Source of the DNA: Lytechinus pictus
Taxonomy: Eukaryota
Assembly (NCBI RefSeq): GCF_037042905.1
Contig: NC_087250.1
Span: 9,984,001 to 10,048,000, forward strand
DNA length: 64,000 nt
Reading direction: 5' to 3'
The position numbers and the translations under genes are program-made. The notes under the pieces are model-generated. The model saw only the letters and a program-made list of their open reading frames with translations. It was not told where the DNA came from and ran no database searches. Positions 9,283 through 55,733 of this stretch are shown in pieces. How positions within the stretch are numbered: the stretch's first letter is position 1; every line of letters starts with the position of its first letter.

Positions 9283-9321
9283 CTTGATCGTAGAGAGGTG
9301 AGTTGTCCGGGATGACAGATG
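9283..9321 (-). CDS. Gene A cytoplasmic exon (SVIPDNSPLYDQ)
   Basis: TTTTGAAG acceptor, strong G|GTAAGT donor, 39 nt, phase 1-1, open, Tyr motif. Confidence 0.55.
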
Positions 9322-9677
9322 CTTCAAAATAATGAATAAGATATCGATAATTATACTATACTATAATTATTTCGACGTTTATTGTTAGTTCGGCTTTTCA
9401 GTTCCATCAATATATTACAATATCATGATATAACCACAACTGTTATATATATATAAAGCATTATCTACTGAAAACACAAAACAAAAATTAAAGTGAGATA
9501 ATAAGATTTTGATTGGCGCATATATTTCTTTATTTGAATAAAAACATTGTTGGTAATCCAACAACCACAACAGAAACGAGTAGTTATTTTCGAAAACAAT
9601 GTCACATACCTACAATACAATATTTTATTACGTATACAGTGGTGTTTAGACGTGGATAAAAACAATGGAATACGTAC

Positions 9678-9728
9678 GAGCTATGATTTGGTACGTGTAA
9701 ACCGGGTCATGAACAGTTGGAGGAAATT
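9678..9728 (-). CDS. Gene A candidate cytoplasmic exon (EFPPTVHDPVYTYQIIA)
   Basis: CTTTTTGCAG acceptor, C|GTACGT donor, 51 nt, phase 1-1, open. Confidence 0.35.
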
Positions 9729-10823
9729 CTGCAAAAAGACAATAACAACCGATAAAAAAGAACTAAAGATAAGTAATTGCTACAGAAATCGTACATTAAA
9801 TTTGTACGTTGCTCTAAAGTATAGATAAAGGGTAAGCGAAAAAATCCTAGCAAGCAAATTCTAATTTCCGGTCACTCGGTTTATTAAAGTGGACAATGCC
9901 GTAACACTTGTAGAAATGATAGTGTATAAATGTCTTTGGGTAAGACTACGTGATGAAGGGCGTTATGGGACCATGACGTCATAAAGCACAAGGTTTATTG
10001 CCAAGGATTGACAGTGATTTTTTTTTAAATAGAACAGGCTTTCTGCCATCGCACCTTTTCCCGCCCATCGAATACGAGAGACTGAGCATGCAAAGAATTC
10101 AAATTTTGTCTGACATATCACATGCTTCTCATACTCCTGCAATCATATGGATTTTCTCCAAACAACGTCGTTCGCCAGGATAGTGGACATGGATTGTGAT
10201 GTTTTGCATGGTGTGTGTATCGCCGGTAATTCAAGTTCACTCTTTCGACTTGAGTAAATTTTCCTTTAACGGTGAAAATCGGATGCGGCGATCAGATTGT
10301 ATATTGCTTTGCTTTGTTATTCAACAACATTCCAAACTTATATTATTTTAGATATGTGTCACAGGCATTATTCTTTTTGGGTGTGACATTCTATCCACAA
10401 ATTGCACGTTTGGTTGAGATTTAATTGTAATATTTTGGTCAAAACATAACCACACAAGTACAGCCAGATTTAGACGTGTGTGCACCAACAGAGACGCCGA
10501 TTGAATTTATTTTACCTTAACAAAATAACTTTTCAAATCTGGTATTTTTTCCAAGAGGCTATAGCAAAAACATAAAAAAAAGGATACCGGTGTGTGGTGG
10601 AATTTGTTGACTACTTTTTAACGGTAAGAAGACATGTTTATTGCGGCCCCTTTTTTGTTTGTCCCATTCAATATAGGTCCATTCATTCAAAATAGGTCAA
10701 CTCAATTCCTAACTACAATTTACAACCAATAACAACTCTTCATTGGCATTGTTTGCATGTATATACATTATACATGTAATTGTGCATGCGTCTATCTGTC
10801 TGTGTGTAGTTGGTATGACTTAC

Positions 10824-10943
10824 CTCTTCTCTTTCTAATGAAGAAAACGATTAGAACAATCATCGCTACGCTTATCACAAGACCCGCGAAGACAGATCCT
10901 ATTATTAGACGTCTTTTATGAAGATTTGATTTACCATATACAG
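10824..10943 (-). CDS. Gene A transmembrane exon
   Basis: LIIGSVFAGLVISVAMIVLIVFFI followed by the RKRR stop-transfer signal; CTTGCAG / G|GTAAGT; 120 nt, phase 1-1. Confidence 0.85.
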
Positions 10944-11670
10944 CTGCAAGCGAATCTGCCGTATAGTTACATGTAGATGGCAAAAGAAAATTAATAAATT
11001 AGAATTGGGTCAATAAAAGAACGATGTAATAATCATGTTGACTCAAACTAGGTGGTTGAGTTTTATTCTTATATTCGCAGATCCGTTAATTCAATTTTAA
11101 AATAATACTCGCATCTGTCGTATCCACGATGCATAGTCAATATGTGTCACATTTTTCTGGCATAAGACTTCTATGATATACGTCATAACACGAAATAATA
11201 TAGGTACTCATGATTACTCTGGAAATGACGGAAATAAGTGATAATGAAATTGGTATATACTAATGATAATGATAACAGTAAAACAGTAAATACGACTACT
11301 GCTATAGAACCACTACTGCTAATTATAATGATAAAAATAATTAGCTCTTGAACAGTGCATACCTCGTTTTCATCTAACGTCTTTATGCGCTCGATCCAAA
11401 GAGACTTTGGACATTATCACACTGACTTAATACCTGGCAAGTTGTGAATATCGATGAATATATAACTAAAATACATTTATAGAAAATTAATATATGTCAA
11501 GAGTAAGTATCAACTGATGAAAGAGTGACCCCCCCCCCTAAAAAGCCATAAGAGTCGAGCATTAAGATAAATGAATAAAAGTGATCAATAAATAATGTTT
11601 TTCCCCATGTGTATCATTCGATTTATCGAGCCTTAGCTCAGATTTCTTCAATACCGGTGCGACTTCTTAC

Positions 11671-11899
11671 TTGTATCAACACAGACACTTCTGTTCATGG
11701 ATTCACCAAGAGAGTGTGTTGCAACACATAACCACTTGCTGTTCCTGTTGATGGGGACGTCGACCACAGATATGGCGTATCCGTTGACTGACGACTCTTC
11801 TTCATCTAACTGATCATCCAATACTCGAAACAGTTTTATATCCCACGGTGTGGCAATATTCTGTGCTTCACATAATAGGTTAAGGGTAGAGCCTGATAT
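11671..11899 (-). CDS. Gene A divergent Ig-like domain exon
   Basis: GSTLNLLCEAQN...KWLCVATHSLGES (B- and F-strand Cys); TTTTCACAG / A|GTAAGA; phase 0-1. Confidence 0.75.
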
Positions 11900-12945: not shown

Positions 12946-12953
12946 CCATGTAC

Positions 12954-13147: not shown

Positions 13148-14108
13148 CTACAGGAAATTTGCACAATCTCCTAAGTTAACACAGAGAATCACACTGAATA
13201 TTTAAGAGAGAATGATAAATATATGGGATATACATCAGATCTAGAAAATATTTCGAGCAAATTTACATTTTAGATGTTGACGTTGTTGACCGTCCATAGT
13301 TGTAGGTGATCGGATCAATCGCAACTGTAGTATGTAGTATGAGGGCCCTGCCCTCCTGATGAGGCGCGGATCCATGGAGTAGGAGCTGGGGGCAGGCCTC
13401 CCCCCCCCCTTCCCTCCATGGGTCCGCGCCTGCTCCTGATCTCCTAAAAGTGGGCGATTAAAAATGTCTTGCAAGTTCACTGACTTCATTAACCCGTAAA
13501 ATATCCTTTCTCTCAATTTCAGTAAAACTTCATTGTTCCATAAATAATCAGATGATGACGTTACGTTACCTTTGACACGTTTGAAGCCGTACTGATTACA
13601 CAACAGTCGCCAGGCTGAGAATCAATGGGATCGAGGCAGTTAGCGATAGCTATACGAGGATCTGGTTTAATGAGATATTAATCGGAGTATTTATTTATTT
13701 TTTGCTTTTCTAACTTCTAGGCACCCAAAATAGCCTTCCTTCTTTAGTGTTTTTTTTCTTTATTGATATTTAGCGACCAAAAATAATCTTCATTTTATAG
13801 TGAACCCCCCCCCCCTTCGGCTGTTCAAATTTCCGGGAGTAAAATAACCCGTTTTTTTTCAAATTCACATCAGCACCCCTAGTAAAAAAAAAACGTTTCC
13901 AATGGCCCTGTGAGAGAGCACAACTGTTTATTAATGAGAAAGGTTTACGTGTTACCATACCCATACATGATCGTATGCGTATTTGAAAAAAAATTATTTC
14001 CCAACGGTCATTACACAAAATATATGGACAAATTAAAGCATATTAACAAATCATTTCCCCAAACATTTTCCACGCATAATAATTTCACATCATTATACAT
14101 GTATATCT

Positions 14109-15701: not shown

Positions 15702-16025
15702 CTAATCTCTTTATGGTAAAAGTGACCTCTACCGTCTTGTAAGAACGCCCAGCGACGATTTGGTCCGCCCTACAAGTGATATTCTGACCCCGAGCTTGCT
15801 GCGAAATATTGAGTTTCACAGCACTGGAGGAACCTCGAACTCTTTCGCGAGACGAATTAATGTTGTTTGCCGAGGTCTGTAAGAGGAGACTGACCGGTGG
15901 AAACACTTTTCCAACAACAGCGCACTCTACGTCCGTTTCTTCACCATGCAGAACTTCAACAACGGCGCCGTCAGTTATTACGTCGCCTGTTGTAGTCTTT
16001 GAAATTGTTATCTCCAAAAGGGGTA
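15702..16025 (-). CDS. Gene A C2-type Ig domain exon
   Basis: ETDVECAVVGKVFPPVSL...ARGQNITCRADQ; TTCTTCAG / G|GTAAGT; 324 nt, phase 1-1. Confidence 0.85.
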
Positions 16026-18726: not shown

Positions 18727-19050
18727 AAATGACATGAAGATATGCGCTGGTCTCTTTAATCTCAACTTTACTATGGGTCAACAGCCTACAATTATAGATG
18801 CCGTCGTGAGAAAATGATACATTAAGAAGAACGAGATCAGTGTGATTCACAACGTATCCCCGAACAGGGCTCTGCCATCCGAGGTCAGTAAATTTTGAAA
18901 AGGAATACAGTGTTTCGAAACCCTGAGTTGAGTTGGTGACTTTCTGCCAGTACAGGGCCTGAATATTTGACGGGGTAATGTTTATCGAGCATGGGATGGT
19001 AACGTCTGTTCCTGGTTGAACGTAGATATCCATTGCAGAGGTCAGGAATA
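18727..19050 (-). CDS. Gene A V-set Ig domain exon
   Basis: PGTDVTIPC..ALYWQK..DLVLLNVSFSHDGIYNC (canonical Cys, Trp and DxGxYxC-like motif); ACATAG / T|GTAAGT; 324 nt, phase 1-1. Confidence 0.9.
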
Positions 19051-21316: not shown

Positions 21317-21368
21317 CATTTTTGAGAACGAGCGTCAAAAACAAGAACCGGATCAAGACAAGTTGCAT
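21317..21368 (-). CDS. Gene A first coding exon, signal peptide (MQLVLIRFLFLTLVLKN)
   Basis: AAAATG start, hydrophobic core, G|GTAAGC phase-1 donor joining in frame to VFLTSA-MDIYV. Confidence 0.75.
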
Positions 21369-22129
21369 TTTCGATCATAAAAGTATATCATGCAATATAT
21401 GTAAGTGAAGGCTGATATGAGGGCAATAAACCAATGAGATTTCCGAAACCTCCTTAGTACTATTTTGATAACCTTGCTTTGTGATAAATATTGGAATAAG
21501 TACTGAAGTGTGTACAGGTGAATCACTTGCTTCGTTATTCATGTTACACTCGATATTCAATGGCTGTTTGAATATCAAACTCGATTTGAAAAGAGATTCT
21601 TTGAACCGTGTCGATAGAAAAATTTGGCATTGGCATGATTGTCATTTGGTACAAGCCTTTATAGAAAAAGGCGAAAGAGATGAATGAACGCTGCAATGAC
21701 GAACATTTTCCCCCATGGGGAATCCCATATTAAGTTTTTATTGCGAAACTGACAACCGGAGAAGGAGAATCATCCACAAAACAAACATTTAAAAAGACCA
21801 AATAAGACAAAACTCTTGATAGCCGTGGAGTAATGAGCCAACAATTTTGAGGGGGCCAAGGTATTACGTATTGCGTAAAATTGATAAGAAGTTGCGAACG
21901 AGCAAAAAATCCGACATGTTTGTTTCGAAAATCCAATTAGTGATAGATTTTGACATACTATTCATAAAATTATAAATTAATTATGCAATGTGTTTCGAGA
22001 TGCAATGCATTGCTAAGATAAAATTGTATAAGAGAATTCAAGACCACGTAGAAGTCCCTTACGAAATGGGTACGTTTCTTCGTCTGTCTCATTTGGAAGC
22101 GTCCCATTCATTCGAGCAGGGATGTAGTC

Positions 22130-22290
22130 AAAGAAGAATGACAAGAAAATGAGGAATAAGCTAGGAAGAGGCGAAGAAGGAGGAGGAGGAGTAAGAAGAA
22201 GGAGAGAATGGGAAAGAATAAGAGGGAGGGGGAATAAGAAGAGGCCAAAAAGAAGATGAGGAGGAGGAAACAGGAGGAGGAGGGGGGGGT
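22130..22290 (+). repeat. Purine-rich (GAA/GAG) low-complexity tract
   Basis: Direct inspection. Confidence 0.85.
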
Positions 22291-23039
22291 AGAATTAGTG
22301 GGAAATGCCGGGCAACAAAAATGAAGATCTTTTATTTTGCATTGGGTGGCTTGTCAGATCCCCCTGCCCCCTGGTTAATCCTGGAGAGGCCCCAACATTC
22401 AACAACGATGTACATGGTGTAGGTCCAAAGGATGCGAAGAAAACTTTTTTGTATAATTAGAAGGTGAAAAAAGACCCAAATATCAAATTGAAACCACTAT
22501 TAATAACAAGTGCCTCATAAATGTTATGCTATTATTATAATTATAGTTATTATTATTATTATATCATTATATCAATATTAGTTGTAGCTGCAGACTTGTT
22601 TGATAGTTCAAAATAAAAACAAAGGTTTCGAAGGAAATGTAAGGTTTCATGTCATATCTCTATTACTTAATTCTTTTACTTCTTTAATTCTTGAGACATG
22701 AGGTACTTCCTTAACTCCATAAAAACAATAACATAATTCCGTAAAAACTCAGTTGAAACAGAATACAAGGAAGTCATAGGTACAAGAGCAACATCAATCC
22801 TTCACAGCATCTATGACTTTAACCTTATGATACAATGACTATCTGATTCTGAATGCAAATTATCACAATCCAGCTTAAATTGCATAGACCTATTTAGCAC
22901 TGTAAATTATATGCAACCCAGCAACTGACATTAAATCAACATTACATAGGTGGCATTCGTGTACCTAATAGGCTCATAAGATGCATGTTTTGTCATTATT
23001 TAGCATCACTCTATAGCATTACCAGGTGTCTACTGTGGA

Positions 23040-23460
23040 AACACCGTGGTGTAGAGGCTCTGACTCTCGCCTTGTAATTAGAGGGTCGTGTGTTCGAATC
23101 CCACCATGGCCTAGCGTTCTTTGGTACTTTTGGTAGGAAACAATCGTCACTGTGGTTAGTTTAGCAAGTGTGCGCCTAACAGGCTGCTTAAAATGCTATG
23201 AATCCACACTGTAAACAATTAAGTGCTAATTTATAGCACTTACAGTGCTTGTATAGTGACTGCACTATGATTGCTGATTTTCTAGTTTAAATTTAAACTA
23301 GAAATCAACACTCGTAGTGCAGTCAATATACAAGCACTTTAAGTGCTAAATTAGCACTTCATTTTTTACAGTGCAGTGACCGGGTAAAAATAATTGTGAA
23401 ACACTTTGAGCAGCCAATGATTGATAATGCGCTATATAAATGTCAATTATTATTAATTAT
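23040..23460 (+). mobile_element. tRNA-derived SINE interrupted by a palindromic MITE (23207-23373)
   Basis: A box GTGGTGTAGAGG, B box GTTCGAATCC, tail GCGCTATATAAAT..TATTATT; insert CACTGTAAAC..TTTTACAGTG is self-complementary. Confidence 0.75.
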
Positions 23461-23813
23461 TTGTTACTTTCCAAGTGGTATATGTATTTGACACAAAAAC
23501 TTTCTGCATTAACTTTCTATGGACATTCACATGCATTAATGCGTTAAGCCTATTTATGCCATGTCAATATGCTAAACCAAATCATATCAAAACTTTCTTC
23601 CAATATACATATATACATATTTTTTAAATACATGTAATGTAAATCAATTTTTCAACTAGCTATTTGCTTCCAAAAATCTTCTTTATTAAGAGAAATCCCA
23701 TGTAGAATGCTTAAGATTAATGTAGATTTTTAGTCCCAAATCACAATCTCCAGCTCTGATTTCATCTTATCACACCAATCACATACGTTGACCAAGAGAT
23801 AGTGCTAACAGTA

Positions 23814-24046
23814 CACTGCAAAAACTCCGGTGTTGATTTAACACCAGCCCGTATGTCCACACCAGAGAAGTATTGAAACAACACTAGTTTGGAATCAAAC
23901 CGATGCTGTTTTAATACTAATTGGTGTTGTATAAACACTTATCTGGTGTTACACCAAAATGAAACTGGTGTTGTTTCACACTTCTTTGGTGTGGACAAAT
24001 ATAGATTCCGGGCTGGTGTTAAATCAACACCAGAGTTTTTGCAGTG
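23814..24046. mobile_element. Palindromic MITE
   Basis: TA-CACTGCAAAAACTCCGGTGTTGATTTAACACCAGCCC ... GGGCTGGTGTTAAATCAACACCAGAGTTTTTGCAGTG-TA. Confidence 0.9.
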
Positions 24047-24427
24047 TATAATAATCAGGAAAGGCATACGCGGCACAAGTATTAAACATGCACCGTGTGA
24101 ACTATGTACAATATATACAAAGATGAGTGGGGGTGTGTCTGTGTGTGTTCACCCAAGCACATTATCTACAGTACAAGCATATCAATACGACTAGTCTCAT
24201 CATCATACCCAAGGAGGCCTTATTTTTTACAAATTAGAACATTTGATGGTATTTCAGAACAAATCAGATTAACAACCTTTGTACTCAAAACAGCTTTCAT
24301 TACTGGTTTGCATAATTATTATAAGAAATTAAGAAGGCTAAAAAATCAAATTGAAACCATTAGAAAAACCGGCGCCTCATAAATGTTACGTTATTATCAT
24401 AATTATAATTGTTATTGTTATTATAAA

Positions 24428-24442
24428 TAGTAGTAGTAGTAA

Positions 24443-24480
<38 letters not shown>

Positions 24481-24532
24481 TCATCATCATCATCATCATC
24501 ATCATTATCATCATCATCATCACCATCATCAT
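24428..24532. repeat. Compound (AGT)n(ATC)n microsatellite
   Basis: Direct inspection. Confidence 0.95.
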
Positions 24533-25113
24533 GAATAATACAAAATTATTAGCTTTCTGAAGAGCTCGAAAGTTCAGAGATAATAGAATGAAAACTTCAC
24601 TTTAGAGCGACCTTATAAATCATTTGCTTACTTGACAAATCGTTATTGTCTATCCGTCAAAGGTCTACCATAAGGTGTTCAACAAGAGCTCGAAAGTAAA
24701 GAGACAATAGAATGATATCTCCTACATACAGGCAATGATATAAATCTTCTACTCTTTTGACGAATCAGTAATGCATACAGTGTCGAAGGTCAATTTTTGT
24801 TTCATTTTCATTATTTTTTTGGGGGGAGGGGCATGAAATCTCCCATTTACCATGTTTACGGATACTAAACCCTTAAATATCATTCAAACATGTTCGAATG
24901 GTTAAAAAAATCATAGACACCAAGTTAAAATAAAACACTGATCGCTCTAACGACTTTGATAAAAAAGAAAGATATTTGAGCTGATTTATTTTGTCTTTCG
25001 AACCTCATGTTCGCACTTCGCCCTACTGATATAATGGAATACCTGTCTGCCTTCATTTAATGGCATAATAGTATATGTGTTATGGTCAGAAAGTGAGAAA
25101 AGAGGATTTCACG

Positions 25114-25162
25114 ATGGCGTTTTTTAGTCGAATTCCAGTGTACTGCATTGTTATACTTGCGT
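25114..25162 (+). CDS. Gene B exon 1, signal peptide (MAFFSRIPVYCIVILA)
   Basis: ACGATGG Kozak-like context; T|GTAAGT phase-1 donor in frame with exon 30375. Confidence 0.7.
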
Positions 25163-25349: not shown

Positions 25350-25553
25350 TATTTATTTTTATTTTTATTTTTTTTAAACAAGTGCACACCAAGTTACCAA
25401 TAATGCATATAGCATTAACATTTATTTGAAAGCAGGATAAAAGAGCAATGTACATTAAATACTTTGCTCACGGGCATAGGTGCCGCGGCCGGGGATCGAA
25501 CCCCGGATTTTGTATGTATAGCCAGGCGCCTTAGACCACTCGGCCACGGCACC
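25350..25553 (-). mobile_element. tRNA-derived SINE
   Basis: GTGGCCGAGTGGTCTAAGGCG A box, GGTTCGATCCCC B box, body TATGCCCGTGAGCAAAG.., (AAAAT)n tail. Confidence 0.8.
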
Positions 25554-30374: not shown

Positions 30375-30587
30375 CTGTTAAAGTGGGAGTACAATCTCGA
30401 AATGTTACTGCTATCGCCGGAGAAAGAGCTGAGCTTACATGCAATATCTCTCGGTACCAAAGTTCTCTCGTGTCCTTAACATGGGCCCTCGGATCTGAGA
30501 CTATCCTGGTCCACCTGTGTGAAGATCGATGTGCCAACGTTTCCACTGGTCAATTCGAATCCCATATCGACAAGGCAACTGGTTACG
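30375..30587 (+). CDS. Gene B exon 2, N-half of V-type Ig domain
   Basis: NVTAIAGERAELTCNIS..VSLTW; AAATAG / G|GTAATG; 213 nt, phase 1-1. Confidence 0.85.
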
Positions 30588-30629
30588 GTAATGTATTCGA
30601 ACTCATTACATCTTAGAAATAAATAATAT

Positions 30630-30900
30630 TAAACAATAATAGTTACCTCGGTCATAGGATGCATGACTCTTCCACACATATAGTGCACCATCTCTACTCC
30701 CTTGGGAGTATCCTAACCAGGCAACCGTTTATCGATGCACACATGCCAATCCTTTCGGGTACCCATTTAGCACCAAGGTGGAAAGTGACAAATGTGGGTA
30801 AGTGCCTCGCCAAATGCCATTAGCGCCGAGCGGAATTCGAACCCCCGACTCTTGGTTTAAGAGTCAAGTGACTGAACCACTACACCATGACACCTCCACT
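30630..30900 (-). mobile_element. tRNA-derived SINE
   Basis: Minus strand CATGGTGTAGTGGTT..GGGGTTCGAATTCC, followed by a SINE body (AAATGGGTACC, ATACTCCCAAGGGAGT). Confidence 0.7.
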
Positions 30901-31632
30901 AAATGCCATTTCGGCAATTGTATTAGTCCAAAATGATTTCGGACAGAATCCTATGAAACGTCCTCTCAAGTATTTGTATAACTGAAATTTATATGTCAAA
31001 TGATTCTGGAAGAAATGAAATAAAATTGCTAAGAAATTAGGAAAACAAGCAAAGTTTCCACCCAAAGGTCGGGTCTTTTTTCAAGGAATAATAATACTCA
31101 CATGTGCGTGTTCGTGATCTCAACCGTGATCGCTTCCAGCTTAGATTTCATGATTTCAATAAATTTTCTATAAAATAGTGAAAAATATCCTTGGTTTTAC
31201 AGAATTTCACATGAAATATTTACTTAGACGACATTCATTTGTATTTAACAATGTGTTTACCTGGTAGAATTACGAATTACGGGAATAAAACCACCTTCCT
31301 TTGATAATAGAAATGGTAAAAAGAAATCACCCACCATTTCTTTTTCAATTCAATTTGTAAAAGGTTAAGCTAAAAAAATATATATCCACTGGACTCTGGT
31401 AGTAATTAAATATGATTATTTTGATATATAAATAAACAAAAATCAATGAGAATTTCAATTGTTTTGATATATTTTTTTTATTTCTGCTTCATTTTCGAAG
31501 AAAGGGTGTCATTACATAAAGATATTAAACTATGTCCAATTGAAATCTTCCCTGTGAAATTCATAGACTGCGTAAACTTTTAGTTAATTAATATCTACAT
31601 TAATACTAAATAGGTTCATTATTGCGGACTGA

Positions 31633-31786
31633 AATAATCGCTAGAGGGTATTCATTTGTCTCGCAATCTACTATGGTCAACAAGGAAATTCGTGATCACT
31701 CTCGCAAAAAGTGTTCACTAGCTTACAAGTTCACGAGCTTTCGAGTGCAGATTGCGAGACAAATGAATACTCTCTAGCGATTATTA
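31633..31786. repeat. Hairpin element flanked by a direct repeat
   Basis: AATAATCGCTAGAGGGTATTCATTTGTCTCGCAATCT / AGATTGCGAGACAAATGAATACTCTCTAGCGATTATT; TAATATCTACATTA occurs on both sides. Confidence 0.8.
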
Positions 31787-33159
31787 ATATCTACATTATT
31801 CAGGATGAGATTTAAATACACCCAGAATGATACGATGCTATTCAGCGAAAACCTATCAAGTTCAAATTGATAAGCAAACCCCAATCAGAATCTTTCAAAT
31901 GTACACAGTTAATTCTGATTGGCATTTATGGGAGTATACTAGTTATTAAAACCAATAAATCAACTTCGTGGTTTAAATTGGTATCAGTTCACGACACATT
32001 GTTTATATGAGGGCATATTTTATCCTACTGATTTTGAGATGCAGCCTATTAGGAAAATCGAAAGTTCCATGAAAAACTACATCATGAGCAAATGGCTATG
32101 ATATCAAAATAAAGATGAAGATGAGTCCTGCACTGAAAATTTAGGTACAATTGTACTAAAAATTTAAACGTTCAACAGTTAATATCTAAATGTATAGTCT
32201 CGATCAAGCAATGCAAGTTCGCTGAAGATACTCAGAACTGTCTAGAAAATCACCTATTACACAATACACTCATGTGGGGCATTGCACAGAGCTTATATAC
32301 ATTCAATTGCAATTGGTGTGGTCTTATGGTTAGAACATTGGAATCATGATTGAAAAGTTGTGAGTTCGAATATCCGCTTTAACCAAAAAGGCCATTGAGT
32401 AACCTCTGTCGTCTATAACGGTCGGCCAAAATGACTAGTTAACTTAAATACACATGTAAATAAAATCAAGGGCGTATCCATGATTTTCTATTAAAAAAAA
32501 AAAAAAAGGGGGGAGGGACATTTCCCCATGAAAAATTATATAAGCAAAAAAAAAGGGTTTAACCAAAGATTAAAGGTCATTTTGTCCATGCAAAATTTGA
32601 CAAGCAAAAAAAAAAAGGTCCTTGTGAATGAACGACAAATTCCCGTTAAAAATACATGCTGTGACTTTCAAGGGGGGGCACACACTCTTGTAACAACGGC
32701 AGATTTGTGCCCCCCCCCCCCCTGGATCCGTCAGTGTATAAAATGTTTCCTGTGTAAATGTTTATACCAGTTGATATGGCAATGATGCGGCGGAAAGCTG
32801 TGCGAAATTGTGCCTAATTTGGATATTAGGCTTGCATTGGAACATAACAAATAAGTTTATGGCAACGCACAAAAGTGGCCTCTAAAAAGAAATGTAGCTC
32901 CAAATAATAATTGTTAATTGTTTCTAAAATATATTGCGGGAACCTTTCATGAAAAAGAGTAATTTTCTCTGATTGTTGTAAATAAGAGCTATTGCAAATC
33001 ATCGCCTCGGATGATTTGCAGTAGGATTTTAGTCAGTAATAATTTGAAACGCACCCAGGCTGTTAGATAGGTGATTGATTTCCCTTCTTAATCTCCTTTT
33101 CTCCCCTCTTCTCTCTCTTTTCTCCCCTCTTCTCTCTCTTTTCTCATTTCGCATTAAAG

Positions 33160-33267
33160 GTACATTGACGATTCAGCGTACTTTACCAGAGCAAGAAGGT
33201 GTTTATTCCTGTATCGTATCGGCCGAATCTACTATTATGAATGATAAAATCATCCTTGTCATTCAAG
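33160..33267 (+). CDS. Gene B exon 3, C-half of V-type Ig domain
   Basis: GTLTIQRTLPEQEGVYSC..IILVIQ; long polypyrimidine tract, TAAAG / G|GTAGGT; 108 nt, phase 1-1. Confidence 0.85.
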
Positions 33268-35288: not shown

Positions 35289-35621
35289 TTCCTCCTCAAG
35301 GAGTATTTCTCTACGACTTATCTCAACGCTTTCGCGTGGATGATTGGGAAACCATGATCACCCTAGACCAAGAGCAACTCCGTCTTCGATGCTCATTGGC
35401 AAACCCAACCAAACCCGAATCACAGCTTCGCTGGGAAACGAACAATATGGAGACCGCCCTCTACGAACAAGTTACCACATTGGAAGATGGCCTTTTCTCT
35501 AGTCACATGCATCTAGATGTGAAAATTCAGCGATCAGATCATGGGAAGGAAATTGTTTGCAGGGCTTCACAGAGAGGATATGGAGTAGTTCCGATGGCGA
35601 GTCTATTTATTCAAGTTCAAG
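35289..35621 (+). CDS. Gene B exon 4, C2-type Ig domain (nephrin/nectin-like)
   Basis: VPP..LRLRCS..TKPESQLRW..RSDHGKEIVCRASQ; CCACAG / G|GTATGT; 333 nt, phase 1-1. Confidence 0.9.
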
Positions 35622-36597: not shown

Positions 36598-36927
36598 AGT
36601 GCAAACTAGGTGTTCTTCCACCGGCATGTCGTGCAAATCTTACTTTGAATCAGGTGTCCCAAGTCACGTGTCCTCTGGCAATAGAGAACCCTTCACTGTC
36701 TGAAGGTTCAGCAGAAGTTACGCCTACCTTCAACGGATCTCACTTCGCTGTTTCGTTGAGACAGTCCTCCGAATTGCTAGGACTAGTTCTGGCTGCGCAA
36801 GTCCCCCATGTTCAGGCAGACCCGACCGAGGACGATATTGCACTCATAGAGTTTGTGTGTTGTGAGAATCCCGCATCATCTTGTCCGGGTGTCGCTTGCT
36901 CCGGAAAGTGTCGTTCTACTATTTTGC
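36598..36927 (+). CDS. Gene B exon 5, 8-cysteine module (possibly a Trp-less Ig variant)
   Basis: Open 330-nt phase 1-1 exon; CATTGCAG / C|GTAAGT; ECKLG..C..VTC...EFVCC..C..C..C. Confidence 0.8.
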
Positions 36928-39582: not shown

Positions 39583-39981
39583 TATATACACCAACACTCT
39601 CTATCCATACGACAGAATGTGCGTACGCCCTTACAAACGCACACACACAAGACACCCACCACATCGTGGGTGTCACCCTCCATAGTATTACATACATCCA
39701 TATCTCAATAAAAACTCATAATAGGCCTACTATCGTTTGAAATATTCTGCTTTAGTTTTTTGTTTTTGTTATATTTCTGGGACGCACTGTATATACACTC
39801 ACACTCTCTATCCATACGACAGAATGTGCGTACGCCCTTACAAACGCACACACACAAGACACCCACCACATCGTGAGTGTAACCCTCCATAGTATTACAT
39901 ACACCCATATCTCAATAAAAACTCATAATAGGCCTACTATCGTTTGAAATATTCTGCTTTAGTTTTTTGTTTTTGTTATAA
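39569..39981 (+). repeat. About 207-bp tandem duplication including the MITE right end
   Basis: TCTGGGACGCACTGTATATACAC..TTTTTGTTATA occurs twice, nearly identical. Confidence 0.9.
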
Positions 39982-40289: not shown

Positions 40290-40589
40290 ACAACCCAACG
40301 AACGTTGAAATAGTTCGCCTCTCCGATGGCGCCCTTGCAGAACATGCGCAAAATATTTCAGTCATGTGCTTTGCAAATGGGTACCCTCCCCCCTCCGTCT
40401 CCTGGGTGAAGCAAGAAGTCACTGATCATAGTGGAGAAGAGAAAGGAGAGTTGGAATCAACCACTGGAATCGGCTCATCAACTCTGTTCTTTAAAAACTT
40501 GTTGCGCGGCCACTCAGGGGTATACGGCTGCCATGCAAATAACGGGATACCTCCAAGTGCGGAATCACGTATTAACATCGTTGTTAACC
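40290..40589 (+). CDS. Gene B exon 6, I/C2-set Ig domain
   Basis: ISVMCFANGYPPPSVSW..STLFFKNLLRGHSGVYGCHANNG; 300 nt, phase 1-1. Confidence 0.92.
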
Positions 40590-40898
40590 GTAAGTTCCCA
40601 AGTAATACATGTAATATTTAAATATTTAAACACTCTCTAATATTGTATCGGTCCTAATGACACTCATCTGGGAGTGAGACGATCTCATTGCATTTAGGGT
40701 GAGATTATTATTATTTTTTTTTTTTTTTTTTTTTTGGGGGGGGGTCTCCATTTGGTCCTCTCTCTCTTTGTGTTATACGTTAAAGAAGCGTTTAATCTCC
40801 TGGTATACACGTTGATGAATGGATTGACTCCAAACCCCATCCTCCGAGTAAAACAAATCATTTGCAATGTTTTCTTACAAAAAAAAACACATAAACAG

Positions 40899-41195
40899 AT
40901 GCCCCGGATATTGATCTTGGGCAGACCAAGTTAAACCGAAACGAGGAAGAAAGTGTGCGGCTAACCTGTGAGGTAACAGCAAACCCAGAACCGACCCGAC
41001 TGGAATGGATCGATCCCAACGGACGGGTCATTGAAGGGACTCAGACGTCAGCGTTAACATCTAATCCATTTGAAACGGTAGTGGAATTCGTAGCAGCTTT
41101 CGTCGTGGGACAGGAAACTGTCTTTGGAAATTATACTTGCCTCGCAGCCAACGACTTTGGAAGTGCCAGAAATGATATCGTTTTAACAGGAAAAA
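40899..41195 (+). CDS. Gene B exon 7, I-set Ig domain
   Basis: APDID..VRLTCEVTANPEPTRLEW..FGNYTCLAANDFG; 297 nt, phase 1-1. Confidence 0.92.
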
Positions 41196-42076: not shown

Positions 42077-42358
42077 AATTCCCCGGGTCTCCTTCGAATC
42101 TGAACGCACTCGTCATTTCGGAAGATTCGCTAAAATTAACTTGGTCATACGATGATGAAGACGAGATATCGTTACACTTCAACGTGAAATATTGCAAGAA
42201 CTCTTCTCGAAGCAAATGCGGTCTACAAGACAACCATCAGAGCCGTTCTTTGGACATTGAAGGTTTGATGTCCTATACCTGGTATTGGGTGTCCATATGC
42301 TCCGAAAATGACTTTGGAAAAAGCAAATACTGTGAGGAAATTGTGACGTCAACTCCAC
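42077..42358 (+). CDS. Gene B exon 8, fibronectin type III domain 1
   Basis: FPGSPSNL..SLKLTW..FNVKYC..IEGLMSYTWYWVSICSENDFGKS; 282 nt, phase 1-1. Confidence 0.92.
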
Positions 42359-42834: not shown

Positions 42835-44498
42835 CACTGTTGGTCATAAAGGTGGAATATTTTTTTTCACCAAATTTTCACAGCGTAATTATTACAACAT
42901 GATTTGAATATGGCATTTATGGTGCATGATAACCACTTTACTTTATTATTCTGCCTCTTACACACGTTTGACAGTGATATTTTACAAGTTTATGTCCTAT
43001 TAAAGCGATGGATGTCATGAGCATAGAACAACAATGACGACAATGTATAGTAAATTAAAGGATCATGAGATATTTATTTTCAATCTCTCTCAGTTTTCCA
43101 TATGACTTTTTTTGTGATTTCATGGACAAATTTGCATCAAACTTGAGTCATTGTTCTTACTCAGTCACTAGTATCGGGTATATCCACCCCTGGCGCGAAC
43201 CAGCGCATGCAGACGTCGTGGCATGCTGTCCACTAGCTTGTTGACGATGTCGACAGGCATAGCGTCCCATTCTTCCCTCAGAGCATCTGCCAACTCCTGC
43301 AGATTTTGAGGAATGACCTCTCTGTCGTTGATGGCTCGGCCTAGGGCATCCCATGCATGCTCTATGGGGTTCATATCCGGCGAACAAGCTGGCCATGGCA
43401 ACTGTACGACGCCCTCTGCCTCCAGGAATTCCCTTACTGCAGCCGCCCTGTGCGGTCTAGCGTTGTCATCCTGCAGTCGGAAATTGTGCCCATACACTCG
43501 TCTTGCATATGGAAGACAGTGGAACTCCAAGATATCCTTGTAGGCGGCGGCGTTGACGTTTCCGTCCGGAACCACCAGTGGTGTTTTCCCTCCATAATGG
43601 ATGCCGGCCCATATCATCACTGAGCCGCCTCCGCCTTGAGTCGTCTCGCGGATAAATTCATCACGAAGGTTTTCCCCGGCTAATCGACGAACTCGTTGTC
43701 TCCTATCCTTTCGGTCAAGGATTAACCGGCTCTCGTCCGTGAAGACCACATGTTGCCAATGTCCTGGATGAAGCCTAATGTGCTCCCTAGCCCAAAGAAG
43801 ACGAGCTACTCTGTGGCGAACAGACAGGCGTGGGCATTTGGTCAACCGTCGAGCTCGGTAACCATGTTGGAGCAATCTGCGATTAACGGTTGACCGGGAA
43901 ACGTTGATCCCATGATATCTCCTCCACAAGCGACGAAGACGGCTTGAGGGCAATTTCCGGTTTCTGCGGCTGAAATTCAACAGTTGGCGATCATCTCTTC
44001 TTGTGGTCAATCTGGGACGTCCTGGTGATTTCCGTGGCCGCACATTCCCCGCCTCACGTTGACGTTTCAGGATCTTAGAGACTGCACTCTGTGATATCCC
44101 TAGGACTTCTGCGATATCAGTCTGCTTGTAGCCCTCCTGTCGCAGTGCTACCACTCTCTCACGTGTTGCTGTTACCGTCGGATCAGGCATAGTCCAGGGA
44201 ACGTCTCTACCGATTTTTGTTTCAAATGGTACAAGGAACTCGAAATAATGCAACCTTCTTATACATAGTGCTAAATCAGGGAAAGGGACAGAATATCATA
44301 TGCATAGGCTTTTATAGTCTACAACAAAAGAATTTATTACGTAATCCAAATTTATCATGTTATAATGTCACCTGTGTAATGGGGAAACATTATGTAATCA
44401 CTTAATTACCATTTTGTCTACGCGTAGCCTTTCAAATACCAACAAAACTGTCGATTTTTATTCAAAAATATTTTATTCCACCTTTATGACCAACAGTG
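42835..44498 (-). mobile_element. Full-length Tc1-family DNA transposon
   Basis: Perfect 25-bp TIRs CACTGTTGGTCATAAAGGTGGAATA; TA flanks inside an (AT)n tract; intact transposase ORF. Confidence 0.97.
43168..44190 (-). CDS. Tc1 DD34E transposase (340 aa from MPDPT; ORF track starts at 44253)
   Basis: Paired-like HTH, GRPR, FTDESR, QDDNARPH and WPACSPDMNPIE; 34 residues between the second D and E. Confidence 0.96.
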   Translation of the reverse strand: MPDPTVTATRERVVALRQEGYKQTDIAEVLGISQSAVSKILKRQREAGNVRPRKSPGRPRLTTRRDDRQLLNFSRRNRKLPSSRLRRLWRRYHGINVSRSTVNRRLLQHGYRARRLTKCPRLSVRHRVARLLWAREHIRLHPGHWQHVVFTDESRLILDRKDRRQRVRRLAGENLRDEFIRETTQGGGGSVMIWAGIHYGGKTPLVVPDGNVNAAAYKDILEFHCLPYARRVYGHNFRLQDDNARPHRAAAVREFLEAEGVVQLPWPACSPDMNPIEHAWDALGRAINDREVIPQNLQELADALREEWDAMPVDIVNKLVDSMPRRLHALVRARGGYTRY

Positions 44499-44959
44499 TA
44501 TATATATATATATATATAAATATAAATATGATACAAACATTACCTGTTTTCACTTTACAATGTACTTTCTATATATGCCGCTGTTTTGTGAATCTGATGT
44601 CGTTCATAAGTTCAATTCTTTACATGTAACACTTCTGTGATTTGGATGGTTTTCAATACGGAATAGAATTATATGAAATGAATGTAGCAATTTGCAATCC
44701 CTTCCAATTTAACATCTGGTATAGACATTAATTTGCCCTTTTCGTTGCATAAGCTTTTGCATAATATGGCTGGTCATTTAGTCTATACATTTTATTTTTT
44801 TTCTTGGCTATTATGTTTATTTATTAAGATTAGTATTTTTCGTGAATAAGTTTATTTTAAGTAGGCTAATTAACATAGAAATGTAAATTGATATATTGAT
44901 TTTTCTCCTATCAAACAGCTTTACCTCCAAGTTTTTTCGGTAAGTAATAATTTTGCTAC

Positions 44960-45632: not shown

Positions 45633-45899
45633 GTGTGAATGCTACTTACCGCGAATTGACAAAGCGACTTACTCTAAGTAGAAACACTGACGGAAATACT
45701 CCGCCGATTCCAGCTGGACTTTGCTTCCACATCCAAATCTCGATAGCGGGTGTACGCCATGTGAACGACTCTTGTCTGTCTCCGAATAGCAGCCTTACAA
45801 CAAGCCATCAACTCTTGGATGGTCAGATCTGGCTCGTGTCATGTGGTCACGCCGTATGCAGTGACCCATCTCCTGTCCACTTCCTGCGTGACCCCGAAG
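45633..45899 (+). CDS. Gene B exon 9, unrecognised 4-Cys module, copy 1
   Basis: Open 267-nt phase 1-1 exon; clearly similar to exon 48679-48936. Confidence 0.85.
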
Positions 45900-46275: not shown

Positions 46276-46560
46276 GCCCACCTGATGCACCTACGAGATT
46301 AGCAGTGAGAGATTATTCCGAGACGACCCTCACAATCGTATGGGAACACGATAAATACATTCAGAGAGGAAAGACGATTCTCTTCTTCTTAACGTGTTGC
46401 CGGAATGACACGCCCTCTATCTGCATAACCTTCTTCGACGTCAATGGCAGCCCATTGCACATTGCTGATCTGTACCCCAAAACTTGGTACCTCATTCGCG
46501 TTTATGCCCGAAACCAGTTTGGCGAGAGTCAACCTTCCCAGCTATTAGCTTCGACCGCAC
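46276..46560 (+). CDS. Gene B exon 10, fibronectin type III domain 2
   Basis: PPDAPTRL..TLTIVW..IADLYPKTWYLIRVYARNQFGES; 285 nt, phase 1-1. Confidence 0.92.
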
Positions 46561-48170: not shown

Positions 48171-48191
48171 CTGAATCGCCGGAGGCACTTG
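48171..48191 (+). CDS. Gene B exon 11, 21-nt microexon (PESPEAL)
   Basis: TTTTGTCTACCTAG acceptor, G|GTAAGT donor, phase 1-1, open. Confidence 0.65.
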
Positions 48192-48678: not shown

Positions 48679-48936
48679 GAATTACTGCGTCGTTTGAAAA
48701 ACAGACCAGTAAACTAAAGATCCATCAAAACTCGAAGGAGCTCTTACCACGTGATTTATGCATCCGTTTGGAAATTCGCAGCAACGAGTTTGTCCACCAG
48801 AACTCGACTTGCCTGAGACCTGATGATTCCAGCAGGCTATCTACAGATTACCATGCGGGACAACTTTGGATTGCATTATGCCGGGAAGAAGTCTGTGGTG
48901 CGCCTTCACAAGTCGACTTCATAGAGAGTGACTGGG
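48679..48936 (+). CDS. Gene B exon 12, unrecognised 4-Cys module, copy 2 (missed by ORF track)
   Basis: GITASFEKQTSKLKI..LPRDLCIRLEI..NSTCLRP..GQLWIALCREEVCGAPSQVDF; 258 nt, phase 1-1. Confidence 0.85.
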
Positions 48937-50472: not shown

Positions 50473-50574
50473 ACAGAATATCAACACCAGTATTGGCGTC
50501 GGTCATCTCAGTTACAGCGGTTGCCATGGTGATTTGTGGCTTCTGTTTCTACAGTAGATGCAATCGGTGTCAAA
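50473..50574 (+). CDS. Gene B exon 13, transmembrane segment (missed by ORF track)
   Basis: PVLASVISVTAVAMVICGFCFY-SRCNRCQ; TTTGCAG / A|GTAAGA; 102 nt, phase 1-1. Confidence 0.85.
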
Positions 50575-51040: not shown

Positions 51041-51245
51041 AGAAAATTGTACATTCATTTAAGTGCTTGTTGAAAGGTATTGACATGGAACATCAAATAA
51101 ATCGTTATTATAGATATGTAATTTTCTCTCATTCTAAGGTGAAAGAGATATCAAATTCTTATTACTGAAACTATTTGCTTAAAGCAAACATGGCTTGATT
51201 GAAAATGATGTAACTACATGCACATTTGTTTCAAACCATGAACAG

Positions 51246-51424
51246 ACTACCAGTGGAACTACAATAAAGGTGGTCGTAAACTTCGTCGGAGGGGTCAAGA
51301 CGAACAGCCACAGGTATTTCGTCGAATTCCTGATGCTGACAGAAGCGTGCGAGGAGAGACACCAAGCCAATTGCCACCAATTCCTCCAATACCCCCACCC
51401 TTCCAGAATGACCTTGAATTGGTG
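51246..51424 (+). CDS. Gene B exon 14, cytoplasmic Pro-rich exon
   Basis: NYQWNYNKGGRKLRRRG..QLPPIPPIPPPFQNDLELV; phase 1-0; donor GTATGA (alternative GTGGTA 3 nt upstream). Confidence 0.7.
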
Positions 51425-51458
51425 GTATGATTTTTATGAACATTATTTAAGACAGTCT

Positions 51459-52249: not shown

Positions 52250-52329
52250 GGTAGTTGGGTGGGGGCTATGCTGGACACCGATCTAATTTAATTTAGTTGA
52301 GCGTAGCATCAGTAGTTAATTGCATTGGT

Positions 52330-53815: not shown

Positions 53816-53825
53816 TCTGGTACCG

Positions 53826-54228
53826 TTAAAGGCGACCGCACACCTTACGATTGGTCTGCGACCCGATTTCAGAATAAAACGTAGTAGAATTTGATGCTAA
53901 TATTGAGACTTGGAATATCTTACTGTGTAATGTTCTAAATCATCATAAGAATACCTATGTTCATATCCTTCTTAGAATAAAAGCGAATTTAATATCTAGT
54001 CGTATTGACGTCATAGCAGTCGTACGATTGGCTACGATTTGAAACTAATTTGGCCTTTACTCCAAAATAAAGGCTTGCAATCTTTTAAAATGGTTAATAG
54101 TATTCTTTCAATTAATTTTTAATCTCAAATAAAATGATATGTTCCATTCACATTTTCAGAAAATTAGCAAAATTCGATTTGTTCCAAAATCGGATCGCGA
54201 ACAGTCGTAAGGAGTGCGGCGGCCTTAA
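53826..54228. mobile_element. TTAA-flanked MITE
   Basis: TTAA-AGGCGACCGCACACCTTACGA ... TCGTAAGGAGTGCGGCGGCC-TTAA. Confidence 0.75.
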
Positions 54229-54789
54229 CATTTTCGGCTCATTACTTACACCACTTAGCCGTGGTTAAGTTTAGCAATAGAAGTACAATGTGTGTCTGTG
54301 TCATTGGGCTGTGTATAGAGCACAAATTAGTAATTCATTCGGGAGCAGATCACAGATAATTTAACTTTATTTATTAAAATAGTTCATGAAAATTGGACAA
54401 AAGGATTGAATATCAAATAAAATTCATTATACGTTCTTATTCTTTCATAATTGGGCATTTGGAGATGCTAGGGTGCATGCTTATCGTTGTTGTCGGCAAA
54501 GCAGTTCCGTTTTTTTCTCGCAAAAAATTTGGTAAATTTATGGTTAGTCTTGTCTCGGGTCATATAAATTTGGTTTGAGTTGGACAAGTACTCGATTAAT
54601 GTACCAAATTGTAGGCCTACTGTATATTTCGATTAATCTCAGTAAACTAGAACAAAATAGAGGGGTTGCTATCTAATGATATTTTTATGGTGTATATACT
54701 TGAGAGTGAATTGGAGTCTTAATTACTCATGTGTGCCCTGTACGTGAACGCGTGAAATTGGTGAAGAAAAAGTAAAAAAATATACACTT

Positions 54790-55191
54790 GGGCGATTCCA
54801 TGCTAGAAAGATCAGCCATTTTCACAACATTTTTCAACCTGCTGTCCAAATGAACAAAGAACTTCAATTTGCTTTGTGGTAATATTAAAGAACTATTGGG
54901 TAGACATGCAAAAAACCGACAACCAACAAAAATATATTGTCTTTATGTGAATTAGAGCTTAAAATGTTGCGTGTCGTACGGGACATTTCTGCGTCCCAAA
55001 CGATCGACACACAACATTTTCACCTATAATTTACCCATAATCATTTTGTTTGTGTTGGTTATTAGTTTTTCACATGACTACCCACTATAGCTTCATCATT
55101 GACCAAAAATAATATTTTATTGCTCAAGCATTCGTCTAAGAAACTAGAAATTAATGTCAAAATGTCCCGTACGACACGTATGGAATCGCCC
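54790..55191. mobile_element. MITE with GGGCGATTCCAT TIRs
   Basis: GGGCGATTCCAT ... ATGGAATCGCCC; CACTT on both flanks. Confidence 0.7.
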
Positions 55192-55469
55192 ACTTGCGTG
55201 GCTCGTCAACCCTGTTTCAAAGAGACCTGCGTCAAAGAAAAACAATATCACATAGCCGTAGCAGTGGTGATAGTAATACAAGTAGTTGCTGTAGAATAGC
55301 AGCAGCGCTGAAACCTGTTTTAAGGTTGTTTTACTACGAGGGCAGACAAACCGCGATACGTTTGCCTGTTTTGTTTGCTTATGAACCCGGCCCGGTGTGG
55401 TCGCTTCCTCCTTCAGCCGAAATAATCATTTCTTTCCCTCCTTTTCTGCATTCAAACAATATCGAACAG

Positions 55470-55733
55470 AACTACGATGACGTACCAGATCAGAACAGAC
55501 GATCAGGATCAATCTCTTCCGGTTCGTTCATGGAATCACTTCCTGAGAGCATGCAGACCTCGGAGCCACAGGAAGGTTTCCAGGGTCCTCGTGCTTCGGC
55601 GGAAACACGAAACGGAATGTACTGTACCACTCTGATGCGGGACAGACGTGCCGCTGCAGGACGGGGAGCCCGTGCAGGTCTTAGGCAGCAAACAAGAATC
55701 ATTCGTATGAGGCCGATTAGTACACCTAACTAA
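55470..55733 (+). CDS. Gene B exon 15, terminal cytoplasmic exon
   Basis: NYDDVPDQNRRSGSISSGSF..GMYCTTLMRDRR..PN-stop; pyrimidine tract and AACAG acceptor; phase 0 matches exon 14. Confidence 0.75.
   Translation, partial: NYDDVPDQNRRSGSISSGSFMESLPESMQTSEPQEGFQGPRASAETRNGMYCTTLMRDRRAAAGRGARAGLRQQTRIIRMRPISTPN

Follow-up and report, generated by a model that had tools for sequence, protein, structure and literature searches.

The described receptors with which the two genes discussed here are most readily compared, by domain type or by automatic name, belong to the immunoglobulin superfamily (IgSF) and include nephrin and other IRM proteins, NCAM2, Sidekick and the nectins. The ectodomain of nephrin and its IRM relatives is composed of about 8-10 immunoglobulin (Ig) domains followed by a single fibronectin type III (FN3) domain, and that of Sidekick of six Ig and thirteen FN3 domains. 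Tyrosine (Tyr) sites of the YDxV class are the Nck sites of nephrin, and PxxP stretches are sites for SH3 domains. Here, we describe a 64-kb stretch of the genome of the sea urchin Lytechinus pictus (C6:9984001-10048000, at ~10.0 Mb of contig C6; referred to throughout as the window), which is AT-rich (GC 0.29-0.42) and contains a divergent pair of intact genes for single-pass IgSF receptors, gene A on the minus strand and gene B on the plus strand. We consider it likely that these are two separate receptor genes and not close paralogues, with gene A a single-copy orphan and gene B a member of a sea-urchin family of Ig-FN3 receptors, and their head-to-head arrangement is most likely incidental. 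Full-text searches, which covered the articles themselves, found no paper on either gene.

Each of the two genes codes for a protein with a signal peptide, an ectodomain of Ig type, a single transmembrane (TM) helix and a cytoplasmic tail without a Pfam domain, and, apart from TM-type matches in gene A, Pfam found nothing beyond Ig and FN3 types in A, in B or in the tail exons of B. The first-pass annotation of this DNA, made without database searches, had placed two type-I IgSF genes here, and this is borne out by gene models with GT-AG introns for both. Its two start codons were correct (21368 on the minus strand and 25114 on the plus strand, 3746 bases apart), its low end for gene A at 9283 fits a stop codon at 9275-9277, gene B stops at 55733 as proposed, and the Pfam scans of the proteins and of the tail exons were empty of enzyme families, as it had expected of both tails.

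Gene A corresponds to the annotated gene LOC135154402 (protein P0002), which one of its exons, used as query, retrieved together with LOC121417659 of Lytechinus variegatus. It has eight exons on the minus strand, which encode 416 amino acids (aa) between the ATG at 21368 and the stop at 9275. To model it, splice-site combinations were tried around the tblastn matches of P0002 to the window, which show 100% identity within exons; one solution equals P0002 exactly, so that the spliced translation is identical to the annotated protein throughout, with GT-AG at 7/7 introns. The order of parts is signal peptide, V, C2, a linker of 31 aa containing cysteines (Cys), Ig, TM helix and a tail of 34 aa:

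21317..21368, minus strand: exon 1 of gene A, ATG and signal peptide, phase-1 donor (exact model; tblastn 100%)
18727..19050, minus strand: exon 2, V-set Ig domain (Pfam V-set E 1.1e-08; exact model)
15702..16025, minus strand: exon 3, second Ig domain, C2-like (weak Pfam C2-set_2/Ig_2 matches, E 0.04-0.06; I-set E 6.7e-4 on the whole protein; exact model)
13570..13661, minus strand: exon 4, 92 nucleotides (nt), three Cys among ~31 residues, extends the third Ig domain at its N-terminus (tblastn; exact model)
11671..11899, minus strand: exon 5, third Ig-like domain (exact model; two Cys at Ig spacing)
10824..10955, minus strand: exon 6, stalk, TM helix and basic stop-transfer residues (exact model; Pfam Syndecan E 2e-4, EphA2_TM)
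9275..9728, minus strand: exons 7 (9728-9678) and 8 (9321-9275, with the stop), cytoplasmic tail of 34 residues (exact model)

Scanned alone, exon 5 has no Pfam match. The Cys-bearing stretch of exon 4 is identical in the orthologue from Lytechinus variegatus (P0003), and the 4/31 residues that differ in this exon all lie downstream of it. Three Tyr are present in the tail, where the motif Y-T-Y-x-I-I is kept in L. variegatus and the last Tyr is not.

Gene B is considerably larger. Its model comprises 16 plus-strand exons with an open frame of 3309 nt (1102 aa) from the ATG at 25114 to the stop at 55733, without an internal stop; all introns are GT-AG (15/15) and 14/15 are in phase 1, the last one excepted. 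The encoded protein consists of a signal peptide, a split V domain, a C2 domain, a Cys-rich Ig-like module, two Ig domains, two successive units of FN3, 21-nt microexon and disulfide-bearing FN3-like module, a TM helix and a tail of 155 aa:

25114..25162, plus strand: exon 1 of gene B, ATG and signal-peptide-like sequence, phase-1 donor (sequence, in-frame model; predicted only)
30375..33267, plus strand: exons 2 (30375-30587) and 3 (33160-33267), V-set domain split by a phase-1 intron (weak Pfam Ig/V-set half-domain matches; splice sites; alignment with family V domains)
35289..35621, plus strand: exon 4, CD80-like C2-set domain (Pfam C2-set_2 E 2.1e-10; matches P0001, P0005 and P0159)
36598..36927, plus strand: exon 5, Cys-rich Ig-like 'CC' module, eight Cys including an adjacent pair (family homology; 93% identity to P0001 and P0159)
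40290..41195, plus strand: exons 6 (40290-40589) and 7 (40899-41195), two I-set/Ig_3 domains (Pfam Ig_3 E 1.3e-10 and 3.6e-09; P0159 mapping)
42077..42358, plus strand: exon 8, first FN3 domain (Pfam fn3 E 1.5e-08; P0159 93.6%)
44919..44939, plus strand: exon 9, 21-nt microexon, LPPSFF linker (6/6 residues as in L. variegatus; frame kept)
45633..45899, plus strand: exon 10, first four-Cys 'Y' module, FN3-like beta sandwich (AlphaFold2 (AF2) pLDDT 84.4; weak fold matches; family alignment)
46276..46560, plus strand: exon 11, second FN3 domain (Pfam fn3 E 6.9e-10; P0159 94.7%)
48171..48191, plus strand: exon 12, second 21-nt microexon, ESPEAL linker (5/6 residues as in L. variegatus; frame kept)
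48679..48936, plus strand: exon 13, second four-Cys 'Y' FN3-like module (88% identity to P0159)
50473..50574, plus strand: exon 14, TM helix (hydropathy scan; P0159 mapping)
51246..51424, plus strand: exon 15, juxtamembrane tail with the proline-rich stretch LPPIPPIPPPF (P0159 83%; no Pfam family)
55470..55733, plus strand: exon 16, C-terminal tail with the Tyr motifs NYDDVP and GMYCTTL, and the stop (model and P0159 mapping; no Pfam family)

The model draws mainly on the L. variegatus protein XP_041466830.1 (P0159, 960 aa, automatically named 'sidekick-2-like'), which is 92.0% identical to gene B over 957 aligned residues and whose mapping confirms all exons from exon 4 onwards, including the tail exon at 51246-51424 and the last acceptor at 55470. 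The junctions between exons 4, 5 and 6 are also confirmed by P0001, an L. pictus protein of 322 aa (LOC129263398) found in nr only. P0159 begins inside the C2 domain and has neither signal peptide nor V domain, and exons 1-3 of gene B are thus predicted only; the predicted V domain aligns with those of the family described below and has the same extra C-x3-C. Each of the two microexons is the single in-frame candidate flanked by AG and GT in its intron and has strong splice signals. In a Pfam scan of 18 open reading frames (ORFs), 7/18 had no family at E <=1, including the Cys-rich exon, one of the four-Cys exons and the tail, and the other four-Cys exon reached a noise-level E of 0.13. L. variegatus has kept the tail motifs NYDDVP and x-Y-C-T-T-L, and Tyr motifs of a related kind are found throughout the family. 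The first-pass annotation had rightly given gene B V, C2, Cys-bearing and Ig exons and a tail with Tyr motifs, but had left out the second I-set Ig domain, both FN3 domains, both FN3-like Cys modules and the two microexons. The complete 16-exon model is also a gain for annotation: the searched protein collection has gene B only as fragments or as a truncated orthologue.

The order signal peptide, V, C2, Cys-bearing exon, Ig is indeed common to A and B, as had been noticed at first sight, but the Cys-bearing exon amounts to 31 residues in A and to a domain of 110 residues in B. The further proposal that the two genes are paralogues did not hold up, as close paralogy is unsupported by any of the comparisons. 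BLASTP of A against the gene B fragment P0001 gave a best E of 0.005, with 20% identity over 79 residues in the C2 domain, and phmmer of A against the stored comparison set of 158 proteins (also used for the module searches below) returned 11 matches, none of them a member of the B family and the best non-orthologue at E 2.2e-05. The genome-wide six-frame search with A, run like all such searches on the window's own L. pictus assembly (811.7 Mb, 368 contigs), misses gene B ~4 kb away. With hhalign, A and B can be aligned over 157 columns, that is, V and half of C2, with 20% identity (probability 91.8, E 7.4e-07), which is the level seen among V-C2 adhesion molecules generally. The V domain is encoded by one exon in A and is split in B, and that of A is without the extra C-x3-C. 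The similarity between A and B appears to be one of shared IgSF ancestry of the V-C2 kind and not of recent paralogy. The sequence between the two genes is as follows:

21369..25113, no strand: spacer between the two ATGs, 3.7 kb, mostly unique (repeat search)

A repeat of ~240 bp at ~23810-24050 within this spacer matches itself in either orientation and, with 90-94% identity, dozens of other sites spread over many contigs (at least 94 matches, from 5650 first-look candidates), and looks like a miniature inverted-repeat transposable element. Microsatellites of (TAG)n/(ATC)n are present at 24428-24532.

Judged by sequence, gene B of L. pictus is orthologous to XP_041466830.1 of L. variegatus and is a member of a small family, seen only in sea urchins, of Ig-FN3 receptors of the adhesion type. 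The hallmarks of this family, all present in B, are an extra C-x3-C in the V domain, a third, Ig-like module that is rich in Cys and includes an adjacent Cys pair, a four-Cys FN3-like module beside the membrane and a Tyr-rich tail; in the orthogroup of B, the unit of FN3 and FN3-like module with its 21-nt microexon linker is duplicated. A HMMER search with P0001 gave 919 matches at E <=0.001, and among the best 150 of 919 most are giant multi-Ig proteins. A few, again among the best 150 of 919, align over their own whole length, namely P0074 and P0100 from Diadema ('nephrin-like'), P0075 from Strongylocentrotus purpuratus (LOC580285) and P0153 from L. pictus ('nephrin-like'), and P0001 also matched P0005 from S. 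purpuratus (XP_030849709.1, 'amalgam-like') and P0128 from L. pictus (LOC135153997). The family proteins share the layout of B, and their exons map successively onto the window. P0074, P0075, P0100, P0128 and P0153, like the proteins that cluster with them, come without exception from sea urchins, and P0001 and P0159 fall into one 90% cluster. Profile hidden Markov models of the Cys-rich and Y modules, built from these same proteins, match only sea-urchin proteins among the 158 stored, and neither module was found in the remaining proteins of that set, which include sequences from spider, mollusc, tick and shark. The family can be defined by its two distinctive Cys-bearing modules, at present scattered by automatic naming under nephrin, NCAM2, sidekick, amalgam and uncharacterized. 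Within the reach of these searches, the lineage restriction suggested for both genes was upheld, as A has matches only in Lytechinus and Strongylocentrotus and the Cys modules of B were seen in proteins of sea urchins only.

In a maximum-likelihood tree with 12 rows, to which a warning of long branches applies, P0001, P0159 and P0005 of S. purpuratus form a clade with window B (100/99), and P0128 with P0158 is the sister of this clade (94/97); P0075 groups with Diadema P0154, and the long Diadema proteins with P0153. The orthologues of B resemble it closely, P0159 having the same exon chain from C2 to the stop with both microexon linkers and both FN3/FN3-like units. P0159, P0005 and P0001 are all partial automatic models: in P0159 the signal peptide, the V domain and the first part of C2 are missing, P0005 consists of C2 and one Ig domain and skips the Cys-rich module, and their names disagree. 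In the L. pictus genome, the second four-Cys exon as query gave four matches, namely itself, its sister exon and two loci on C4, and the Cys-rich exon found only itself; single-exon queries are less sensitive, and these counts of family loci are lower bounds. P0128 lies at C4:27.09 Mb, with a paralogue of 50-69% identity at 26.86 Mb. P0153 matches two near-equal, opposite loci on C8 (31.457-31.473 Mb on the minus strand and 35.665-35.682 Mb on the plus strand), 4.2 Mb apart, which suggests a recent inverted duplication or an assembly duplicate. The C-termini of P0128 and P0158 read E-T-A-V and E-T-A-L, which we take to resemble class I PDZ ligands, and gene B and its L. variegatus orthologue end in S-T-P-N.

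The two unusual modules of gene B differ in how well they can be assigned. The Cys-rich exon 5 can be aligned to the third domain throughout the family; four of its Cys are invariant, and others are nearly so. It has no Pfam match, and its AF2 model is all-beta but of low confidence (mean pLDDT 58.4). The equivalent region of P0075 falls within the stretch that matches domains 1-3 of SYG-2. By inference from the family alignment and the strand pattern, exon 5 would be Ig-like. The four-Cys Y module is modelled with higher confidence (pLDDT 84.4, pTM 0.67) as seven strands. Pfam does not recognise it, and a Foldseek search against the PDB gave no match at E <=0.001, the top rows being CNTFR-alpha (E 0.052, TM 0.54), IL-7R-alpha and the FN3 domains of titin and DCC. 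A wide structural search placed IL-10R1 first (Z 6.5, rmsd 3.4, 81 aligned), followed by many FN3 and cytokine-receptor domains, such Z values being common for beta sandwiches, and in the protein atlas the module falls nearest to fn3 clusters (0.90-0.92). Together with its predicted fold, the Y module is best read as a divergent, disulfide-bearing FN3-type domain. The two units of FN3, microexon and FN3-like module in B are 27-30% identical to each other, and their duplication is old, since both are also present in L. variegatus.

For gene A, relatives are few. Among 6442 candidates, only three proteins of similar length match it: A itself, its L. variegatus orthologue (LOC121417659, P0003, 86.3% identity) and S. 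purpuratus LOC100888977 (P0004). When the complete L. pictus genome was searched in six frames with A as query (14 candidates scored), six matches were obtained, all of them A's own exons, and A is therefore single-copy at detectable similarity. On this sequence evidence, it seems to be an orphan gene present in one copy, with three Ig domains, and it was seen in camarodont sea urchins only. P0004 matches A over V and half of C2 only, with 53% identity, and then runs into a ZU5 domain. The ZU5-bearing C-terminal half of P0004 maps in L. pictus to C6:16.82-16.83 Mb and 18.21-18.22 Mb, 6.8-8.2 Mb from A; ZU5-like exons have many further weak matches on C8, C9 and C16. The joining of V-C2 and ZU5 in P0004 is likely a model artefact (chimera) or a rearrangement, because the ZU5 half maps far from gene A on C6, and a V-C2 and ZU5 fusion as the true C-terminus of A was rejected on the same grounds.

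Of the other explanations for this locus, the one that survives best concerns two L. pictus versions of gene B. P0001 is 90.6% identical to window B and 93.6% to L. variegatus P0159, so that the 9.4% difference between the two conspecific sequences is as large as that to the L. variegatus orthologue. Over 297 gap-free sites, 262 are the same in all three sequences, private changes number 15 in the window, 12 in P0001 and 7 in L. variegatus, one site differs in all three, and only the 7 sites private to L. variegatus unite both L. pictus sequences; the tree does not settle the branching order of window B, P0001 and P0159. A genome search for a second locus closer to P0001 in this assembly found none (11 matches, the best three being the window exons). 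P0001 comes from an older annotation, by inference from its accession and its nr-only source, and its divergence could reflect a deep allelic lineage, a paralogue missing from the assembly or a difference between source populations. Under the first of these, gene B would be a recognition locus of high polymorphism whose allelic lineages are old, as is the case for allorecognition or immune receptors. The proximity of P0001 to L. variegatus, the spread of private changes and the lack of a second locus speak for this, but the comparison covers just two conspecific sequences and one gene, P0001 may stem from a missing paralogue, a divergent population, a mislabelled source or model errors, and it does not contain the V domain, where recognition polymorphism would be expected. 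We regard such a locus as unlikely, and give slightly less credence still to its fuller form, in which B would be a polymorphic self/non-self or immune receptor with allelic lineages as old as the split between L. pictus and L. variegatus, the Tyr tails would be inhibitory or activating, and A would be a possible linked partner. Unless the deep divergence of the two gene B versions is true allelic polymorphism, the locus is largely ordinary in biological terms.

Equally doubtful is the proposal of a single lineage-specific system for immunity or allorecognition, to which A and B would belong as paralogues under common regulation. The proposal draws on their divergent placement 3.7 kb apart, on the common order of V, C2, Cys-bearing segment and Ig, on the hhalign probability given above, and on their orthologues, which in L. 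variegatus (47,823,793 bases) and in S. purpuratus (52,437,917 bases) appear to lie on one chromosome-size contig, as judged from equal base counts. In addition, the S. purpuratus nephrin-like gene LOC581043 is given as elevated in axial organ and coelomocytes in Table 1 of PMC12113024, but it is not among the recovered members of the B family. Against a joint system stand the identity of only ~20%, limited to generic Ig positions, the failure of A to find a paralogue in the genome, B included, or a family member in the 158 proteins, the different exon structure of the V domain, and the lack in A of the C-x3-C, the CC module and the FN3-like module; the spacer contains a high-copy repeat and shows no sign of a compact shared promoter.

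That gene B is unexpressed or decaying in L. pictus is the least probable of these explanations, for although no assembly protein containing exon 5 was found among 165 candidates and large transposons (a reverse-transcriptase fragment and a Tc1-type transposase) have inserted into its introns, the 3309-nt frame runs over 16 exons without a stop or frameshift and with canonical splice sites only, both microexons are preserved with good splice signals, B is better conserved in L. variegatus (92%) than gene A (86%), and the transposons are confined to introns.

Several points nevertheless weigh against two separate, intact and only distantly related genes as the account of this span. With the Cys-rich exon of B as query, one match was obtained among the 165 candidates, P0001, and no protein from this assembly, so gene B may be unannotated, modelled differently or not expressed. 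Exons 1-3 of B are a prediction, both gene models are sequence-based, and the models of the orthologues are themselves automatic predictions. The functional reading given below is drawn from domain types and short motifs, with YDxV taken as a Nck site and PxxP as an SH3 site. Lastly, the common order of the distal segments and the hhalign result over V and half of C2 leave room for a very old common origin of A and B.

Mobile elements are present in and around gene B. A reverse-transcriptase ORF fragment of the non-long-terminal-repeat type (Pfam RVT_1 E 2.2e-13) is found in intron 5 at 37895-38884 and 38939-39163, both on the minus strand, and the same intron contains adjacent ORFs with near-identical translations at 39531-39740 and 39756-39947, which point to a tandem duplication of ~225 bp. 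The intron that separates exons 8 and 9 (first FN3 domain and first microexon) carries a Tc1/mariner-type transposase ORF of 375 aa (43168-44295, minus strand; DDE_3 E 3.8e-15, HTH_Tnp_Tc3_2 E 1.2e-12). Downstream of B, an element resembling a long interspersed nuclear element occupies 59300-62620 on the plus strand (Exo_endo_phos E 1e-07, RVT_1 E 1.6e-17), with ORFs broken over several frames. A tRNA-like stretch read by eye at 25470-25550, in the first intron of B, suggests a tRNA-derived short interspersed nuclear element; ARAGORN called no tRNA in the 64-kb window.

From their domain types, A and B may be adhesion or recognition molecules, whose distal V-C2 domains would bind a partner on another cell. 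Their tails could signal via phosphotyrosine docking sites, as the short motifs suggest. The tail of B has one YDDV site, of the class bound by Nck in nephrin, and its proline-rich stretch could bind SH3 domains; through such motifs, the receptor would be coupled to adaptors and to the actin cytoskeleton.

Among described molecules, gene A looks like V-C2 adhesion molecules such as the nectins, ALCAM and BCAM. Solved structures related to A are limited to two chains of nectin-3 (E 3.8e-4 and 3e-3), and its language-model look-alikes are ALCAM, BCAM, CD22, HEPACAM2 and G6f-type clusters (scores 0.95-0.96). With nectin-3 and other V-C2 molecules, it shares a V followed by C2-type domains, three Ig domains in all, a single membrane pass and a short tail. 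The similarity to nectin-3 is marginal, the better match extending over V and part of C2 only; in contrast to nectin-3, gene A carries a linker exon with three Cys ahead of the third Ig domain, which is without a Pfam match of its own, and no orthologue of A was seen outside camarodont sea urchins among the 6442 candidates. Neither gene is a one-to-one orthologue of nephrin, Kirrel or SynCAM, in keeping with the first-pass annotation, which had recognised neither as a named gene.

For gene B, the solved structures that are matched depend on the family member used as query. P0075 matches SYG-2 D1-D4 of Caenorhabditis elegans (4OFY) first, with E 2.2e-19 over residues 35-317, whereas P0100 matches Dscam (2.5e-33), Robo2 (4.1e-26), SYG-2 (6.7e-26) and, weakly, Sidekick-1 (7.2e-12). 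The best match of P0159, which is without the V domain, is NCAM2 (2JLL, E 7.8e-23) over the two I-set Ig domains and the first FN3, with SYG-2 absent among the 29 rows listed, and P0001 matches generic I-set domains first and SYG-2 on C2 (8.3e-07). Sidekick, the automatic name of the orthologue, was rejected as an identity for B: the domain count of B is far smaller than that of Sidekick, and Sidekick-1 is only the weak match of P0100. Nephrin orthology was likewise rejected, as P0159 has its best match in NCAM2, family scores against SYG-2 are on a par with those against Dscam, Robo and titin, and a separate S. purpuratus nephrin gene has been reported. Table 1 of PMC12113024 lists two S. purpuratus genes that are elevated in the axial organ, LOC592278 as nephrin (BLASTp value of 8e-122 against human nephrin) and LOC581043 as nephrin-like; neither LOC592278 nor LOC581043 is among the family members recovered here. 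'Nephrin-like' labels in echinoderms should accordingly not be taken to mean orthology, a point of relevance to studies of podocytes and excretion in echinoderms.

Like nephrin, SYG-2 and Sns, gene B has an N-terminal Ig domain followed directly by a CD80-like C2-set domain (C2-set_2 E 2.1e-10 for exon 4 and 4.2e-14 for P0159), then more Ig domains, FN3, a TM helix and a tail with Tyr motifs. In contrast to nephrin and other IRM proteins, it has five Ig-type domains, two FN3 domains recognised by Pfam and two FN3-like modules; its Cys-rich and disulfide-bearing FN3-like modules were not seen in the non-echinoid matches, and Dscam, Robo, titin and NCAM2 match the family equally well or better. 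Like NCAM2, which has five Ig and two FN3 domains, B proceeds from Ig to FN3 domains and crosses the membrane once. It differs from NCAM2 in that its first two domains are of the V-set and C2-set_2 types, the third is Cys-rich and has no Pfam match, only domains 4-5 are of the I-set/Ig_3 type, and there are four FN3-type units, of which the membrane-proximal FN3-like modules carry four Cys and belong to a duplicated unit. Compared in this way, the protein encoded by gene B appears mosaic-like, with a distal part that resembles nephrin and SYG-2 and a proximal Ig-Ig-FN3 part that resembles NCAM.

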